NCBI GenBank assembly: GCA_964573335.1
Contig: CAZNJJ010000001.1
Location: 2,003 to 66,002, forward strand
Source: an uncultured Oscillospiraceae bacterium
Lineage (GTDB): Bacteria > Bacillota > Clostridia > Oscillospirales > Ruminococcaceae
Length of the DNA: 64,000 bases
Reading direction: 5' to 3'
This document shows positions 16,954-24,223 of this stretch, piece by piece. Every line of letters begins with the position of its first letter. Position 1 is the first letter of the stretch. The notes under the pieces were generated by a model that saw only the letters and a list, made by a program, of their open reading frames with translations, had not been told where the DNA came from and did no database searches. A program made the position numbers and the translations under genes.

Positions 16954-17054
16954 GAGGAAAAATATTGACCGCTATACTGGTCAACAGCAGGCGTGTTCAG
17001 AGTTAAAAACAACTATATAAATAAAAAAAACGCGTCCCTGCCGCGCTCAAAAGT

Positions 17055-17297
17055 TTATTTTATTTCCTGCTCCAGCTCATTGAACAAATCGCTGTCGAAA
17101 AACTCCCGTATCGTTATATCCATACCGTCGCACAGCTTTTTTATTGAAACCACCCCGGGATTTTGGCTCTTTTCGTTCAGCATACTGTAAACCGTTGACG
17201 GCGACACGCCCGATAATATCGCCAGCGCGTTTATCGCTATCTGCTTTTCGCTGCACAATTCCAAAATACGCTTTGCGACAGCCTCCTTCGTATTCAA
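17055..17297 (-). CDS. XRE/Cro-like HTH transcriptional regulator (80 aa)
   Basis: INALAILSGVSPSTVYSML HTH, IKKLCDGMDITIREFF; GAGGAG RBS, TTG start. Confidence 0.88.
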   Translation of the reverse strand: MNTKEAVAKRILELCSEKQIAINALAILSGVSPSTVYSMLNEKSQNPGVVSIKKLCDGMDITIREFFDSDLFNELEQEIK

Positions 17298-17348
17298 AAA
17301 GAACACTCTCCTCACTTTATATAATCGTGATTTGAGTTTACCCAAATT

Positions 17349-17414
17349 TACGATAAATCGTATGGGATATATCGCAAAGAGTGAAAGTTTATGCTATAAT
17401 TACGATATATCCCA
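17349..17414 (+). promoter_or_regulatory. Promoter TCGCAA-17-TATAAT bracketed by 12-bp inverted repeats
   Basis: TGGGATATATCG 17363-17374 / CGATATATCCCA 17403-17414; TACGAT-AA-ATCGTA 17349-17362. Confidence 0.6.
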
Positions 17415-17432
17415 CAAATGAGGAAGTATATT

Positions 17433-17867
17433 ATGCCAAGCTGCACCTTTTTCGGACACAGAATATGCCCTTTGGAAATAAAATCCAAGCTCTACCGCGC
17501 CGTTGAGCGTTTGATAACCGAGCAGGGAGTTGACACCTTTTATGTGGGAAAAGAGGGCGGATTTGATTCTATGGCGCTCACTGTTCTCAAAGAGCTTTCC
17601 GCCGCCTATCCGCAGATAAGATATTTTATCACTCTAGCCTATATTCCGGTGAAGAAAAAGGCTGTTGACCCTGCGGACGATGCCCACACCCTCCTGCCGG
17701 ACGGCATTGAAGCTGTTCCGCGAAAGTTCGCGATAAGCTACCGCAACGACTGGATGCTCCGTCAGAGCGAATTTGCCGTGACCTATATCGAACACAGCTT
17801 CGGCGGTGCCGCTAAATTCCACCAAAAAGCGCTCAAATCCGCCAAAATCGTAATAAATCTCGCATAA
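17433..17867 (+). CDS. SLOG superfamily (YspA/DUF1273-like) protein
   Basis: CTFFGHR, FYVG..GGFD, RNDWML..S...TY...GGA pattern typical of SLOG folds. Confidence 0.65.
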   Translation: MPSCTFFGHRICPLEIKSKLYRAVERLITEQGVDTFYVGKEGGFDSMALTVLKELSAAYPQIRYFITLAYIPVKKKAVDPADDAHTLLPDGIEAVPRKFAISYRNDWMLRQSEFAVTYIEHSFGGAAKFHQKALKSAKIVINLA

Positions 17868-17872
17868 GCGAT

Positions 17873-17914
17873 AAAAAAGACTCACTCGGCTTTTTAAAAC
17901 GAGTGAGTCTTTTT
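17873..17914. terminator. Bidirectional terminator
   Basis: aaaaagactcactcg/cgagtgagtcttttt. Confidence 0.8.
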
Positions 17915-17917
17915 ATG

Positions 17918-18661
17918 TTAAAGTATGCTTTCGATAAATTCCTTTATTCTGCTGTCGGCAGGATTTTCAAATACGTCCTTTGTCGAACCCATCTGCAAAA
18001 TGTGCTTGTCGCCCATAAATATTATCTTGTCGGCGGCTTCTCTCGCAAATCCCATTTCGTGAGTGACTACTATCATAGTCATTCGCTTTGCCACCAGCTT
18101 TTTCATAACGCCGAGAACCTCGGCGGTAAGCTGGGGGTCAAGCGAGGAGGTAGGCTCGTCAAAAAGCAGAAGGTCGGGTTCCATCATCAGCGCTCTGGCG
18201 ATAGCCACACGCTGCTTCTGCCCGCCGGAAAGCGCCGAAGGGTAATTATCCGCCTTATCCAGCAAGCCGACCTCGTTCAACCGCTCCTTAGCCAATTCCA
18301 CAGCCTGCGCTTTCGGCATTTTGCGGACATTTATCGGAGCGGCGGTAAGATTGTCCAGCACCGTCATGTGCGGGAAAAGGTTAAAGCTCTGGAAAACCAT
18401 TCCCATGCGGCTGCAAGCCTCGCGCATCTGCTTGTCGGGAAGATAAACGCCGTTTTTCATCAGGTGAGTTCCCTCTATGATGATGTCGCCGCCGTCGGCA
18501 CGTTCCAGCCCGATGAGACAGCGCAGCATGGTGCTTTTTCCCGCTCCTGAGGGTCCTATCACCGCAACGGCATCGCCCTTTTCCACAGTGAAAGAAATAT
18601 CCTCCAGAACATTTACATCGCCAAAGCTCTTTTTAAGACCGTTGACCTCTAAAATACTCAT
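17918..18661 (-). CDS. Polar amino acid ABC transporter ATP-binding protein (GlnQ-like)
   Basis: [35 protein letters not shown]. Confidence 0.95.
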   Translation of the reverse strand: MSILEVNGLKKSFGDVNVLEDISFTVEKGDAVAVIGPSGAGKSTMLRCLIGLERADGGDIIIEGTHLMKNGVYLPDKQMREACSRMGMVFQSFNLFPHMTVLDNLTAAPINVRKMPKAQAVELAKERLNEVGLLDKADNYPSALSGGQKQRVAIARALMMEPDLLLFDEPTSSLDPQLTAEVLGVMKKLVAKRMTMIVVTHEMGFAREAADKIIFMGDKHILQMGSTKDVFENPADSRIKEFIESIL

Positions 18662-18676
18662 ATCGCACCTTCCTCC

Positions 18677-19330
18677 TTAAAAGCTGTATCTGCGCTCAAG
18701 ATACTCAAACAGCTTGGTGATGACAAAGGTGAATACCAGATAGAACACCGCCGCCACCGGATAGGCGGTGAAAACCGCCTGACGGTTTACGGTAGCCTTG
18801 GCGAAATAGAGTATCTCGGTGACGCCGATAGCGGTGACAAGAGCGGTATCCTTAACCAGCGTTATAGCCTCATTCGCAATCGAGGGGAGCGAAACACGCA
18901 GCATCTGCGGCAGAACTATTCTGCCGAGCGTTTGTCCCTTGGAGAATCCCAAAACTCTCGCCGCTTCATACTGCCCCTTTTCCACCGAGAGCATACCGCC
19001 GCGGAATATCTCGCAGAAATACGCCGCGTAGTTGAGCACAAACGCGAGCATCGCCGCCGAAAGACGGTCTAACACGATGATATTCTTCATTCCCGGGATA
19101 AAAGGCAAGCCGTAGTAGAAAAAGTAAAGCTGGAGCAAAAGCGGTGTTCCGCGCATTATATATACGAAAAATCCCGTAACACCGCGCAGGGCACGGCTTT
19201 TGCCCGTTCTCATAAATGTGAGCAGCAACCCGAGCGGCATGGAGCCTATAATGGTCACTAAAAACAGGCTGAGCGTGTATTTAACGCCGTCTGTCAGCAG
19301 CACAGCGATCTCTATAAAATCGTTTATCAT
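18677..19330 (-). CDS. Polar amino acid ABC transporter permease
   Basis: RGTPLLLQL, AAYFCEIFRGG, GQYEAA EAA loop, LVKDTAL. Confidence 0.95.
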   Translation of the reverse strand: MINDFIEIAVLLTDGVKYTLSLFLVTIIGSMPLGLLLTFMRTGKSRALRGVTGFFVYIMRGTPLLLQLYFFYYGLPFIPGMKNIIVLDRLSAAMLAFVLNYAAYFCEIFRGGMLSVEKGQYEAARVLGFSKGQTLGRIVLPQMLRVSLPSIANEAITLVKDTALVTAIGVTEILYFAKATVNRQAVFTAYPVAAVFYLVFTFVITKLFEYLERRYSF

Positions 19331-19375
19331 CTTTTAAACTCTCACACCGTTTCAGAAAATTTTGTTATTCGGCTG

Positions 19376-20227
19376 TTACTTGGCATTTTGGGAGATAACA
19401 TATCTGCCTACTACCGAGTCAACCACAAACACGTCGATTCTGCCTGCCTGAAGATCCATATAGGCAGAAACGTTGTCGGCATATTCCACTACCTCTTTCA
19501 CCTTTGCGCTGACAGGGTCGGCATTGAGCGCGTCAAGGGAAGAAGAACCCTTCTGCAAGCCGATAATCTTGCCCTCAAGCTGTGCCTTGGAGGTGATTCC
19601 CGAAGAAGCGGGAACAATGATTATCTGCTGATTGGCGATATAGGGCTTTGCAAAGAACATATTCTCGATTCTCTCATCGGTTATCGACATACCGTTCCAG
19701 ATGCAGTCGATTTTGCCGGAATTAAGCTCAAGCTCCTTGGAGTCCCAGTCGATAGGCTGAAATTCAACCTCAACGCCCATTCTCGAGGCAACCTCGCGGG
19801 CAAGGTCAATATCAAATCCGACTATCTCGTTCTTTTCATCACGGAAACCCATGGGAGGATAGCTGTCATCAAGTCCTACGATAAACTTGCCCTTGGATTT
19901 GATATTCTCGAGCGACTTGTCATCGGCGGGAACGGTGCTTTCCTCAAGGAAATCGGAGTCCTTAAAGAGAGCGTCGGTTCCGAACCATTTGTTGGATATT
20001 TCGGCTGCCTTGCCGTCCTTTATCATCTCGTCGAGCATCTTCTGAACCTCGAGTCCAAACGCAATATCGCCGTTTCTGAAGCCGATGCCGTATTTCTCCG
20101 CGCCGAGATCCTCACTCAGCTCAACATAGCTCTCGGTTTCAGCGGTTTCGGCGGGCTTAGAGCCGGAGCAGGCACAAAGTCCGAACACCATAACAGCGGC
20201 AACAGCCGCGCAGATAAATCTTTTCAT
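19376..20227 (-). CDS. Family-3 amino acid-binding lipoprotein, circularly permuted
   Basis: Lipobox LCAC; VGLDDSYPPMGF, GFDIDLA, IDWD, WNG, DLQAGRID motifs; the usual C-terminal YGIGFR...KWFG block precedes them. Confidence 0.9.
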   Translation of the reverse strand: MKRFICAAVAAVMVFGLCACSGSKPAETAETESYVELSEDLGAEKYGIGFRNGDIAFGLEVQKMLDEMIKDGKAAEISNKWFGTDALFKDSDFLEESTVPADDKSLENIKSKGKFIVGLDDSYPPMGFRDEKNEIVGFDIDLAREVASRMGVEVEFQPIDWDSKELELNSGKIDCIWNGMSITDERIENMFFAKPYIANQQIIIVPASSGITSKAQLEGKIIGLQKGSSSLDALNADPVSAKVKEVVEYADNVSAYMDLQAGRIDVFVVDSVVGRYVISQNAK

Positions 20228-20434
20228 AACAGATACTGTCCTTTCGGTTTTTGATTTGGTTTGATCATTATAACATTTTAGCATGGTAAAACGCTACCAT
20301 GAAAAAGTGAATCCAATCGCTCAAATTTTCAAATTATCTCATCAAATCTCGCTTTTGCTCCCGAATATGCAGCTTTTCTCTAATATGCGTTTTTGTTGAA
20401 AGCGACGAAAAAGAAATTTCATTTGATAAACCTG

Positions 20435-20463
20435 TTGCATTTTTCAAAAGAAAATAGTATAAT
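20435..20463 (+). promoter_or_regulatory. sigma-A promoter of tRNA-Val
   Basis: TTGCAT-17-TATAAT. Confidence 0.7.
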
Positions 20464-20484
20464 AGCACCTGTCGTTATCGGCAC

Positions 20485-20560
20485 GGACGATTAGCTCAGC
20501 TGGTAGAGCATTCGCTTGACGTGCGAAGGGTCAGCGGTTCGAGCCCGTTATCGTCCACCA
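20485..20560 (+). tRNA. tRNA-Val (anticodon GAC)
   Basis: 76 nt; GGACGAT/ATCGTCC acceptor stem, AGCTCAGCTGGTAGAGC D arm, TTCGC-TTGACGT-GCGAA anticodon arm, GGTTCGAGCCC T arm, encoded CCA. Confidence 0.97.
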
Positions 20561-20561
20561 T

Positions 20562-20589
20562 AAAAAGCACCCGTTTTGGGTGCTTTTTT
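20562..20589 (+). terminator. Terminator after tRNA-Val
   Basis: aaaaagcaccc/gggtgcttttt. Confidence 0.8.
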
Positions 20590-20655
20590 GTTTTGTCACC
20601 TTCTCTCCCGCTTTCATATCATGGAATATGAAAATTCAAAACGGGAGGTACAGCT

Positions 20656-21396
20656 ATGCCGAAAATCTATCTGAGTCCCTCAACGCAGGAGGGCAATCGG
20701 TATGTAACCGGCGGCTCGGAGGAATACTATATGAATCTGGTGGCAGACGCGCTCGAGCCGTATCTTGTCGCCAACGCCATTCAATTCACCCGCAACCGCC
20801 CCGATATGACGGTGACGCAGATTCAGCGGGAATCAAACGCCGGAGATTATGCCCTGCATCTCGCGCTCCACTCAAACGCCGCCCCCGAGGGACAATACGG
20901 CTCTCTGCGAGGGGTGGATATATACTACTTCCCCGGCAGCACCGCCGGCAGACGCGCCGCCGAGATAACCGCCGAGAATTTCAAGGTGATATACCCCGAC
21001 CCTAATCGGGTAACTGTGCGAACCACAACCGCGCTCGGCGAGGTTGACAGGGTGAAAGCGCCCTCACTCTTTATCGAGATTGCCTATCACGACAATATCG
21101 ACGATGCCAACTGGATAATCGAAAATATCGACCTTATCGCCAGAACGATTGCACTTTCCCTCGCGGAGTATTTCGGGCAGCCGTTCTTTGAGCCTGTCGC
21201 TCCTACCGATGCCTATGTCAGAACAAATTTCGGCAATCTCAATCTCCGCGCCCGACCCAACACCTCCTCACAGATAATCGGCAGTATTCCAAACGGCGCC
21301 GCCGTCACGGTAAACGGGCTTATTCCCGACTGGGCAAGCATCGGCTACAACCAAAAAGTGGGATTTGTAAGCAGAAAATATCTGTCGGGAGTTTAA
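20656..21396 (+). CDS. N-acetylmuramoyl-L-alanine amidase (Amidase_3-like) with C-terminal SH3b domain
   Basis: ALHSNA, LFIEIAYHDN; LNLRARPNTSS...GFVSRKYL SH3b; N-terminal motif is SPSTQ instead of DxGH. Confidence 0.82.
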   Translation: MPKIYLSPSTQEGNRYVTGGSEEYYMNLVADALEPYLVANAIQFTRNRPDMTVTQIQRESNAGDYALHLALHSNAAPEGQYGSLRGVDIYYFPGSTAGRRAAEITAENFKVIYPDPNRVTVRTTTALGEVDRVKAPSLFIEIAYHDNIDDANWIIENIDLIARTIALSLAEYFGQPFFEPVAPTDAYVRTNFGNLNLRARPNTSSQIIGSIPNGAAVTVNGLIPDWASIGYNQKVGFVSRKYLSGV

Positions 21397-21432
21397 AATA
21401 TATTCAAAATGCAAATATTTACATTATGTTCT

Positions 21433-21461
21433 TTGACATTAGCGGATATTAGCGATAGAAT
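21433..21461 (+). promoter_or_regulatory. sigma-A promoter of secA
   Basis: TTGACA-17-TAGAAT. Confidence 0.7.
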
Positions 21462-21496
21462 AATATAAATATGTTTTTAAAAACGAGGTATCACAA

Positions 21497-24223
21497 ATGG
21501 GGCTTTTTGAAAAAATCTTCGGAACCTATTCCGATAAAGAGCTGAAGCGTATTCGCCCTATCGCAGACAAGGTGCTGGCGTTGGAGGGGCAGTATCAGAG
21601 CCTTTCCGACAGCGAGCTGCGCGCGGTGACTCCCGCTTTGAAGGAGCGTCTCGCAAAAGGCGAAACGCTTGATGATATTCTTCCCGATGCGTTTGCCGCC
21701 TGCCGTGAGGCTGCGTGGCGTGTTTTGGGGCTGAAGCATTTCCCCGTTCAGATAATAGGCGGCATAGTTCTGCATCAGGGCAGAATCGCCGAAATGAGAA
21801 CCGGCGAGGGCAAAACTCTGGTAGCCACCCTCCCCTCCTATCTGAACGCGCTCACCGGAGAGGGCGTTCACATCGTAACGGTAAACGACTATCTTGCCCG
21901 CCGCGACAGCGAAATGATGGGCAAGGTGCATCGCTTTATGGGACTTACCGTCGGTCTTGCCGTTCCCGGAATGGAGCCAAAGGAAAAGCAGAAAGCTTAT
22001 GCCTGCGATATAACCTACGCCACTAACAACGAGCTGGGATTCGACTATCTGCGTGACAACATGGTGGTCTACAAGGAAAACCTTGTTCAGCGCGGTCATG
22101 CGTTCGCCATTGTTGACGAGGTGGACTCTATCCTTATCGACGAGGCGAGAACCCCTCTTATCATATCCGGTCAGGGAGATAACTCCAGCGACCTTTATGA
22201 GCGCGCCGACAAGCTGGCAAAGATGCTAAAGCGCACCAAGGTTGCGGAGCTTGACGACAAGCAGGAGCAGGAAAGCTACGAGGGCGATTATCTCGTAGAC
22301 GAAAAGGCACGCACCGCCACACTCACCCAGTCGGGAATCAAAAAAGCGGAGAGCTTTTTCAATATCGAAAACCTCAACGACCCCGAAAATCTCACCATTT
22401 CCCACCATGTCAATCAGGCGATAAAGGCAAACGGAATCATGCAGCGTGATGTTGACTACGTTGTCAAGGACGGAGAGGTCATCATCGTTGACGAGTTTAC
22501 CGGCAGACTGATGATAGGCCGCCGCTACAACGAGGGACTGCATCAGGCGATAGAGGCAAAGGAAGGGGTAAAGGTTGAGCGTGAGAGCAAAACTCTCGCT
22601 TCCATCACCTTCCAGAACTACTTCAGAATGTATAAAAAGCTATCCGGCATGACCGGCACCGCCATCACCGAGGAGCGCGAATTCCGTGAGATATACAGCC
22701 TTGACGTTGTGGCTATCCCCACCAACCGCCCCGTTATCCGCAAGGATTATGACGATGTTATCTACCGCACCGAGCAGGGCAAATTCAATGCCGTTATCGA
22801 GCAGATAATCGAGTGCCACCAAAAGGGTCAGCCTGTTCTGGTGGGAACTGTTTCCATCGACAAATCCGAGCTTCTCTCCTCAATGCTCAAGCGCAGAGGT
22901 ATTCCCCATGAGGTGCTGAACGCAAAGCACCATGAGCGTGAAGCGGCTATCGTTGCTCAGGCGGGCAAATTCGGCGCTGTGACCATCGCCACCAACATGG
23001 CGGGCCGCGGTACCGACATCATGCTCGGCGGCAATGCCGAATTTATGGCAAAGAGCGAAATGCGTAAAAATGAGATTCCCGATGAGCTTATCGAGGAGGC
23101 TACCGGTCATTCCGAAACCGATAACGAGGATATTCTCAGCGCGAGAAAGCTCTATTCAGAGCTGCTTGAAAAATACAAAGCTCAAATCGCCCCCGAGGCG
23201 GAAAAGGTCAAGGAAGCGGGCGGTCTGTTCATAATCGGAACCGAACGCCACGAGTCGAGAAGAATCGACAATCAGCTCCGCGGTCGTTCCGGCAGACAGG
23301 GCGATCCGGGCGAATCCCGCTTCTTCCTCTCACTGGAAGACGACCTCATGCGTCTCTTCGGCGGCGACAGAATAGATTCGATGATGAAGGCGCTCAACGT
23401 TGATGACAACACCCCCATCGAGGCAAAGATGCTCTCCAATGTTATCGAGTCCTCGCAGGCAAAGGTGGAAGGGCGCAACTTCTCGGCAAGAAAGAGCGTT
23501 CTCGATTTCGATGATGTTATGCGTATGCAGCGCGAGATGATTTATTCACAGCGCAAAAAGGTCATTGACGGCGAGGATATTCACGATACGATAATCCGTA
23601 TGTTTGAGGGAGTTGTTTCCGATGCCGTCGCCTCCTATATCGGCGACGAATCCGAAAAGGAAAACTGGAATCTCACCGGACTTCGCAACCACTTCCTCGG
23701 CTGGCTCACCACCGAGGAGGATCTCAACTACACCATAGGTCAGCTTGATGAAATAAGCCGTGAGGATATTACCCGTGAGCTTACTCAAAAGGCGCTGGCT
23801 CTCTATTCCGCAAAGGAAGAAGCGTGGGGCGTTCCGATAACACGCGATGTCGAGCGAATGGTGCTTTTGAGAAATGTCGATATTCACTGGATGGACCATA
23901 TCGACGCCATGGACGAACTCAGACGCGGAATCAGGCTGAGAAGCTACGGTCAACAGGATCCGGTAGTCGCCTATCGTATGGAAGGCTCGGATATGTACGA
24001 CGCTATGGTAGCCTCTATCCGTGAGGACACCGTAAAGATGCTGCTCACCGTCCGAATAAGGATAGAAGTTCCGGTAGAGCGTGAGCAGGTAGCAAAGCCC
24101 ACACAGTCGGTATCCGACGGAAGCGACCAGAAGAGCGTTCAGCGCAGCTCCAAAAAGGTCGGCAGAAATGACCCCTGCCCCTGCGGAAGCGGCAAAAAAT
24201 ATAAGCACTGCTGCGGCAGATGA
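21497..24223 (+). CDS. secA: Preprotein translocase subunit SecA
   Basis: [74 protein letters not shown]. Confidence 0.99.

Follow-up and report, generated by a model that had tools for sequence, protein, structure and literature searches.

A predicted natural circular permutant among family-3 substrate-binding proteins, lipid-anchored and encoded in a polar-amino-acid transporter operon of gut Clostridia

Can a substrate-binding protein (SBP) whose chain begins and ends at the wrong place in the fold still serve an ATP-binding cassette (ABC) transporter? The question is raised by a 64,000-nt stretch of DNA (the window) from an uncultured Oscillospiraceae bacterium. On its minus strand, an open reading frame (ORF) running from the ATG at 20227 to the stop codon at 19376-19378 encodes a product of 283 residues, and 45 nt separate its stop codon from the ATG of a permease gene at 19330. 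The original prediction, made from the letters of the DNA, was a family-3 SBP in which the block that normally ends the protein directly follows the lipoprotein signal. The comparisons below identify the lipoprotein as a family-3 SBP (cluster F, type II) whose chain is exactly circularly permuted. That it acts as a functional natural permutant, the lipid-anchored SBP of a three-gene polar-amino-acid ABC importer, is given a probability of about 0.85.

The permuted order is most directly seen by alignment. Residues 33-90 correspond to the canonical C-terminal block and residues 101-283 to the canonical N-terminal three quarters. When PDB sequences were searched, the whole protein matched 3HV1 with E = 3.6e-47; residues 112-280 aligned to 3HV1 20-192 and residues 41-86 to 3HV1 206-251. 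4OHN and 4ZV1 were likewise matched in split, reversed and non-overlapping blocks (small-block conditional E-values 6e-9 to 1e-6). Against the Pfam family SBP_bac_3 (PF00497) the whole protein scored 133.6 bits, above the cutoff of 26.4, which places it in that family. Residues 116-228 map to the start of the profile, and the isolated N-terminal block maps to the last 35 of its positions (98-132 of 132; E = 4.8e-5). Residues 34-83 had been expected to match the C-terminus of SBP_bac_3, and Pfam, 3HV1 and de-permutation all bear this out, with the blocks non-overlapping and reversed.

For de-permutation, residues 101-283 were artificially joined to residues 31-90, in that order, and searched again against PDB sequences. 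The rearranged sequence gave a single alignment to 3HV1 20-251 in which the artificial junction was gapless. The scores of the three best structures all went up by 13-15 bits: 3HV1 rose from 164 to 179, 4OHN from 153 to 166 and 4ZV1 from 141 to 154. The canonical topology, with both termini in lobe 1 and two crossovers, is thus not that of the native chain, which becomes collinear with it only after de-permutation. Nor is the protein a tandem multi-domain SBP, as it holds one core block and one C-terminal block. Judged by these alignments, it comprises exactly one domain's worth of sequence with no segment missing or duplicated; the earlier claim to this effect holds, as the de-permuted sequence aligns end to end. 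The positions first read from the DNA (residues 34-83 at nt 20128-19979, the linker, the RYVISQNAK end and the 45-nt gap) are also correct.

An AlphaFold2 monomer model was built with 60 homologs. Its mean predicted local distance difference test score (pLDDT) is 90.9 and its predicted template modelling score (pTM) 0.81, with low scores in the signal peptide and tether only. Its strands and helices follow one another as in a type II SBP read from a shifted starting point, so that the AlphaFold check proposed with the original prediction yielded a confident fold with the canonical order of elements. Foldseek against the PDB returned canonical cluster F proteins only, at probability 1.0 over 168-190 aligned columns, among them 3HV1, 4OHN (histidine-bound), 6DET (arginine-bound) and Thermotoga maritima ArgBP, these four over 168-187 columns; it aligns only the core because the method is order-dependent. 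Together, AlphaFold2 and Foldseek assign the predicted structure to the two-lobe type II fold. When PDB sequences were searched with a family profile, no chain matched in the permuted order, and a structure of the permuted topology seems not to have been solved yet. The parts of the gene, its product and its operon are as follows.

20267..20275, minus strand: extended -10-like promoter element TGTTATAAT, read by eye, 5' of the SBP gene
20239..20245, minus strand: ribosome-binding site GAAAGGA, 11 nt 5' of the ATG at 20227, read from the sequence
20168..20227, minus strand: predicted lipoprotein signal peptide, residues 1-20, a hydrophobic N-terminus with lipobox L-C-A-C and Cys20
20132..20167, minus strand: flexible tether, residues 21-32 (SGSKPAETAETE), from the lipid anchor to hinge strand 2, pLDDT ~58
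20075..20131, minus strand: residues 33-51, hinge strand 2 (SYVELSED) continuous with the EKYGIGFR beta-strand of lobe 1, from alignment and DSSP
19979..20074, minus strand: residues 52-83, the two canonical C-terminal helices of lobe 1, to KWFG, from alignments and model
19928..19978, minus strand: connector, residues 84-100, canonical C-tail TDALFKD plus about 10 extra residues (SDFLEESTVP), from alignment edges
19646..19927, minus strand: residues 101-194, canonical N-terminal leader helix (DDKSLENIKSKG) and N-terminal part of lobe 1, from alignments and model
19610..19645, minus strand: residues 195-206, long beta-strand with hinge crossover 1, the sole remaining covalent link between the lobes, from DSSP (E195-206)
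19379..19609, minus strand: residues 207-283, lobe 2 as C-terminal domain, ending just past its last helix (…VVDSVVGRYVISQNAK), from alignments and model
18677..19330, minus strand: polar-amino-acid ABC permease, 217 residues, single gene, full-length matches to TcyL, GlnP and HisM-type models
17918..18661, minus strand: ABC ATPase, 247 residues, GlnQ/TcyN/EhuA-like, full-length NCBIfam matches

The start of the gene is indicated by several signals. Homologs share the Met of the window protein as their start (beginning MK...), and an in-frame ATG at 20284 is an unlikely start because it would be overlapped by the extended -10-like TGTTATAAT. In a consensus scan for promoters and terminators the minus strand was without a convincing element, and TGTTATAAT was unlisted as no -35 hexamer matches. 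The signal peptide, a low-pLDDT helix in the model, and the lipobox are those of a bacterial lipoprotein. Its Cys20 is invariant in alignments of 60 close and 23 distant family members; the Cys at position -2 is unusual. From these signals the SBP is predicted to be a lipid-anchored lipoprotein. The tether ranges from about 6 to about 40 residues among homologs and is six or seven residues long in several of them.

Each segment of the mature protein can be matched to its canonical counterpart. Residues 33-51 align without gaps to 3HV1 residues 193-216 in the de-permuted alignment, a segment that lies C-terminal to lobe 2 in canonical SBPs, and DSSP assigns a single long strand (E34-50; pLDDT 93-96) that combines hinge strand 2 with the lobe-1 strand. 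The helices of the C-terminal block span residues 55-71 and 73-82 in the model, and D71, G72, W81 and F82 are invariant among the 60 homologs. The acidic linker TDALFKDSDFLEESTVPADD (residues 84-103) includes the connector, whose edges are set by the 4OHN alignment, which reaches residue 90, and by canonical N-termini, which start aligning at residue 101. The connector has pLDDT 90-98 and varies in length among distant members. Residues 101-194 include D120, W161 and the GMSITDER motif with R186, strand 195-206 aligns to the first crossover of LAO and 3HV1, and lobe 2 carries S228 and D270.

The point at which the chain was opened can be located by comparison with the canonical relative P0134. 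This protein reads ...GRHYLTQKPGEYRILEDNFGTEKYSIGFR... across the region, whereas the window protein ends in ...GRYVISQNAK and, past the anchor and a 12-residue tether, starts with ...ESYVELSEDLGAEKYGIGFR. The cut therefore falls in the loop of 3-4 residues between the last lobe-2 helix and hinge strand 2. Conversely, the old termini were joined as KWFG-TDALFKD-SDFLEESTVP-ADDKSLENIKSKGKFIVGLDD, in which the canonical C-tail is followed by about ten added residues and then by the mature N-terminal leader of canonical SBPs; P0134, for comparison, starts with GDDSLAKIKERGKFVVGLDD and finishes with KWFGEDIFAR.

A canonical chain runs from lobe 1a through hinge 1 to lobe 2 and back through hinge 2 to lobe 1b, so that lobe 1 is made from two separate segments and the chain crosses between the lobes twice. 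In the window protein the chain passes from the anchor through the tether to hinge strand 2 and lobe 1b, and from there by way of the connector to lobe 1a, hinge 1 and lobe 2, where it stops; the old termini are joined through the canonical C-tail, some ten new residues and the canonical N-terminal leader. From the position of the cut and the predicted fold it follows that each lobe is contiguous, that one covalent crossover is left and that the lipid tether sits on the free hinge strand. In the model, lobe 1 comprises residues 33-197 and lobe 2 approximately residues 202-283, each contiguous, with one chain crossing between them. The claim that both hinge strands are present stands for the sequence; hinge strand 2, however, is no longer covalently joined to lobe 2. 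As modelled, it is kept and joined only to lobe 1 and the lipid tether. The short tether of six or seven residues in several homologs suggests that the anchor point near the hinge is probably near the membrane, and it is plausible that anchoring at the hinge would alter the geometry toward the permease.

A chimeric join or rearranged contig, or a gene-calling error, could mimic a permutation of this kind. The window is apparently metagenomic, and gut metagenome runs contain sequence nearly identical to it. Moreover, an unrelated 1410-nt contig of runs X1 and X2 carries two adjacent matches of 20-22 nt to the gene region (19692-19711 and 20237-20258), reported as a 525-nt 'skip'; neither flank of this contig has a match in the window, and it probably belongs to another locus or organism. 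Against an artefact stand the contigs of four independent gut metagenome runs that cross every junction, including a single 3042-nt contig that spans 18600-20511 gaplessly. Across seven studies, at least 20 runs of gut metagenomes contained near-identical DNA. In all of the 120 best database homologs, which come from numerous separate contigs and have 58-99% identity, KWFG precedes YPPM and the chain terminates at ...GRYxxxxN, no more than a few residues away from the end point of the window protein. Two cultured isolates, Yanshouia hominis BX1 and Anaerolentibacter hominis CSJ-1, also carry the permuted gene, followed by permease and then ATPase, and in one of them it lies on a 1.98 Mb contig. 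With independent contigs, homologs and isolate genomes in agreement, misassembly, for which the original prediction had asked for a check, is rejected as far as the data reach, and an artefact of any sort has a practically negligible probability.

The same searches showed that the gene is one member of a widespread family in Clostridia and not a singular event. In a filter-free search of 1.8 billion cluster representatives, the permuted order was found in at least 22 full-length clusters at 50% identity, and the arrangement is kept down to about 40% identity. Within reference genomes the permuted form was seen in Clostridia only, namely in Oscillospiraceae, Butyricicoccaceae, Christensenellales and one Lachnospiraceae isolate. 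Public annotation names the homologs merely 'transporter substrate-binding domain-containing protein', and the family, which is large, is apparently undescribed in gut Clostridia. C20, W161, R186, S228 and D270 are invariant in the alignment of distant permuted clusters. Three distant permuted members (P0144, P0164 and P0165) have lost the lobe-1 DxxYPPMGF motif (e.g. VGGDISTRPM-F), which suggests an altered ligand or function within the permuted family.

That the protein would work is suggested first by its operon. Permease and ATPase match polar-amino-acid ABC transporter models over their full length, confirming the earlier view that both are intact. A polar-amino-acid (PAAT) receptor is expected to be encoded beside a matching permease and ATPase, and the window protein shows this arrangement, which is kept in every locus examined, L002 and L004 among them. 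The single permease gene presumably gives a homodimer. In LAO-BP, Arg77 binds the alpha-carboxylate and Asp161 the alpha-ammonium group of the ligand, as established by structural work; their counterparts in the window protein are R186 and D270. Residues 117-273 align to LAO 8-164 with both residues at equivalent positions, and both are invariant in the 60 close and 23 distant members. The aromatic pair of the ligand site, Tyr/Phe123 and Trp161, is conserved. The nearest solved structures are histidine-bound (4OHN) or arginine binders (6DET, AncQR, ArgBP), while the nearest NCBIfam model of the permease is a cystine permease. An Rfam scan of 17000-22000 detected no T-box or riboswitch that could name the substrate, and returned a tRNA only. 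The ligand would be a polar and probably basic amino acid. The protein would close on it through Arg186 at the carboxylate, Asp270 at the ammonium group and the pair of Trp161 and Tyr or Phe123, and the closed SBP would then hand the amino acid to the permease dimer.

A different view of the locus is that the gene is a decaying, pseudogene-like remnant of a tandem SBP and that another binding protein serves the transporter. Relatives with two or more domains in tandem do exist, and the window protein corresponds to the inner stretch of one of them. The reading frame, however, is intact, with signal peptide, lipobox, ribosome-binding site and promoter-like element, and the fold is predicted confidently. 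The order is retained to about 40% identity with invariant ligand-site residues. Among strains, 14 single-nucleotide polymorphisms (SNPs) were found in the gene, 11 of them at third codon positions, and three amino acid changes were seen (E30K and T31A in the tether, and D40N). This conservation and the excess of third-position SNPs indicate that the gene is under purifying selection. Moreover, the permuted SBP is the sole binding-protein gene of the operon in the window, in L002 and in L004. On the intact frame, the conservation, the SNP pattern and the lack of a second SBP gene in these operons, a remnant was rejected and is very improbable.

The protein could also be functional without being a monomeric flytrap, either as a dimer whose chains swap domains, with the free hinge strand or lobe 2 pairing with the second chain, or as a sensor or adhesin. 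One covalent crossover could ease the exchange of lobes between chains, and the model covers the monomer only. In T. maritima ArgBP, a structural neighbour, the C-terminal helix has been studied for its part in conformational transitions (PMC9402392). Nevertheless, the monomer model is compact and confident, hinge strand included, and the operon with permease and ATPase is conserved. Further evidence against these readings comes from an engineered permutant with the topology of the window protein, cpLAO-BP, from which one interdomain linker was removed and whose termini were joined by (GGS)4 (Steffen et al., 2016; PMC5087393). For the isolated cpLAO-BP, the Kd for lysine is 1.5 uM, compared with 3 uM for the native protein, and a one-site model fits the data (PMC5087393). 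A swapped dimer, sensor or adhesin is therefore regarded as unlikely.

The functional permutant is thus preferred, and engineered proteins offer a close parallel. FLIP-cpArgT194 and FLIP-cpHisJ194 are listed as engineered permutants (PMC7503967), and the permutant design of Okada et al. (2009) is described in papers that cite it (PMC7503967; PMC5087393). By these descriptions, cpArgT, cpLAO-BP and cpHisJ are alike in class and topology to the window protein, with new termini on different lobes. The engineered proteins are laboratory constructs for Förster resonance energy transfer (FRET) sensors with a (GGS)4 linker, whereas the window protein is natural, has a structured connector made from native tails, is lipid-anchored and belongs to a transporter operon. 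The wide family and the engineered precedent make the permutation somewhat less surprising and its function more credible.

How such a protein arose is the next question. The most likely origin would be a head-to-tail duplication of a canonical gene followed by trimming that removed lobe 1a to lobe 2 from the first copy and lobe 1b from the second. Permuted order and tandem intermediates had both been proposed as things to look for in relatives, and both were found. P0124 (L030 3887-5434) is a 515-residue lipoprotein with two complete, very similar tandem domains and 53% identity to the window protein, and its operon continues with permease and then ATPase. Window residues 31-282 align contiguously to P0124 222-456 (48% identity) with one 20-residue gap at the linker. 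This part of P0124 comprises the end of the first domain, the linker and most of the second domain, and the alignment is as expected under duplication and trimming. The connector, moreover, is made up of what in relatives like P0134 are the canonical C-tail and N-leader. Other tandem relatives include permease-fused tandems (P0128). Seven to nine family-3 domain cores each were observed in P0121 (2001 residues), P0157 (2009 residues), P0185 (2414 residues) and P0203 (2993 residues). To our knowledge, GlnPQ-type transporters have two or three tandem domains, far below the number in these giants.

A second permutation type was found in P0137, P0271-P0276 and P0228, cut at the opposite boundary of lobe 2. 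Two of its loci are these:

L081 4001-4807 and L082 4001-4807: second-type SBP loci, including P0272

Proteins of this type open with the signal peptide and lobe 2, continue through hinge 2 into lobe 1b and across the connector into lobe 1a, and end right past hinge strand 1 (...NNQVIVVKP). They occur on contigs of NCBI metagenome-assembled genomes of up to 121 kb in SBP-permease-ATPase operons. AlphaFold gave pLDDT 76, a moderate confidence, from seven sequences only. Both natural cuts lie at a lobe-2 boundary and both leave the lobes contiguous, and the connectors of the two types (A and B) have little identity. The P0124 alignment, the makeup of the connector and the second type lend the originally proposed tandem duplication and trimming circumstantial support. 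A wider proposal is that gut Clostridia hold a large undescribed class of natural single-crossover Venus-flytrap receptors, which would have arisen from tandem genes at least twice by cuts at either lobe-2 boundary, with the lobes contiguous and the tether on the free hinge strand. This proposal is tentative, and we consider it slightly more doubtful than probable.

Some observations weigh against the interpretation as a functional permutant with this history. The three-dimensional claims rest on a predicted model. The best NCBIfam matches of the SBP are lysine/arginine/ornithine and cystine binders, all below cutoff, which leaves specificity ambiguous. Expression data are limited to one RNA run with 6% of sampled words, a trace only. 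P0124 looks like a recent internal duplication and would illustrate the route rather than be the ancestor, and some canonical relatives (50-58% identity) are as near to the window protein as distant permuted members are (40-55%).

Compared with known systems, the window protein has the two-lobe fold of canonical cluster F/type II SBPs (3HV1 of Streptococcus thermophilus, 4OHN of S. pneumoniae, LAO-BP/ArgT, HisJ, GlnH and ArtJ), with 43-50% identity over a 170-residue core. The motifs DxxYPPxxF, GxSITxER, GSS, a D near the end of lobe 2, YGIGFR and KWFG are common to both, and the operon partners, permease and ATPase, are alike. Unlike the canonical proteins, its chain begins at hinge strand 2, ends past lobe 2 and has the canonical termini fused. 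It has one crossover where they have two, and its lipid anchor is on a hinge strand instead of the first lobe-1 strand. Tandem SBPs (GlnPQ-type fusions such as PDB 6H30, P0128 and P0124) belong to the same domain family but consist of at least two complete domains, whereas the window protein is one rotated domain.

A natural, lipid-tethered permuted SBP has been described in Treponema pallidum. TpMglB-2 (Tp0684), classified as 'Type Ic / Cluster Bc', is functional in ligand binding and conformational change, and its authors observed that most of the homologs are tethered and come from treponemes and Gram-positives (PMC4990184). The window protein offers a notable parallel to this. It is a type I, cluster B, sugar-binding protein without sequence relationship to the type II, cluster F window protein. 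In TpMglB-2 three lobe-1 strands were shifted to the C-terminus and a fourth crossover was added, whereas the window protein loses one. The window protein thus falls outside 'Type Ic / Cluster Bc', and TpMglB-2 is an analogue in principle only. TpMglB-2 was the sole natural permuted SBP found in a literature search with thin coverage of subscription journals. No natural permutant of SBP_bac_3 or cluster F was found described in that literature, most subscription journals being outside its coverage.

Natural permutation of SBPs appears rare in the literature, and the TpMglB-2 case concerns a different structural class. What appears to be new here is the natural permutation of the SBP_bac_3 class; that the topology has engineered precedent was already known. 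In this amino-acid-binding class, one of the two hinge connections was removed, yet the protein was kept and diversified across many gut Clostridia. The share of the second covalent hinge in affinity, closing dynamics and docking thereby becomes directly testable. If the permutation is adaptive (e.g. for opening and closing kinetics or tethered docking on a homodimeric permease), the family is a natural experiment on the need for two hinges. With canonical, tandem and two permuted forms coexisting among relatives, the textbook route of permutation is documented. Sensor engineers arrived independently at the design that the natural proteins show, and, if the reading is true, these proteins would be ready-made sensor scaffolds with termini on different lobes. 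Pipelines that are sensitive to domain order label such proteins only 'substrate-binding domain-containing' and may take them as truncated.

The surroundings of the operon gave some minor observations. Just downstream of it lie a 149-residue ORF (17418-17867, plus strand) without NCBIfam match and a 96-residue helix-turn-helix protein (17055-17345, minus strand) weakly similar to SlrR. Between the SBP gene and the next gene, a tRNA-Val (anticodon GAC) is encoded at 20485-20560 on the plus strand, followed 3' by a terminator-like hairpin at 20562-20588 with a 12-bp stem and a T run. In metagenome contigs the tRNA-Val has 5-15 times the depth of the DNA on either side, which fits a sequence common to many organisms. 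The following gene (20656-21396, plus strand) encodes 246 residues, the C-terminal 50-80 of which weakly resemble SH3-type cell-wall-binding regions of the EntFM/EntA-like kind (NCBIfam E = 7e-7 to 2e-5, far below cutoffs), and may be a cell-wall hydrolase. It is followed by secA at 21497-24223.

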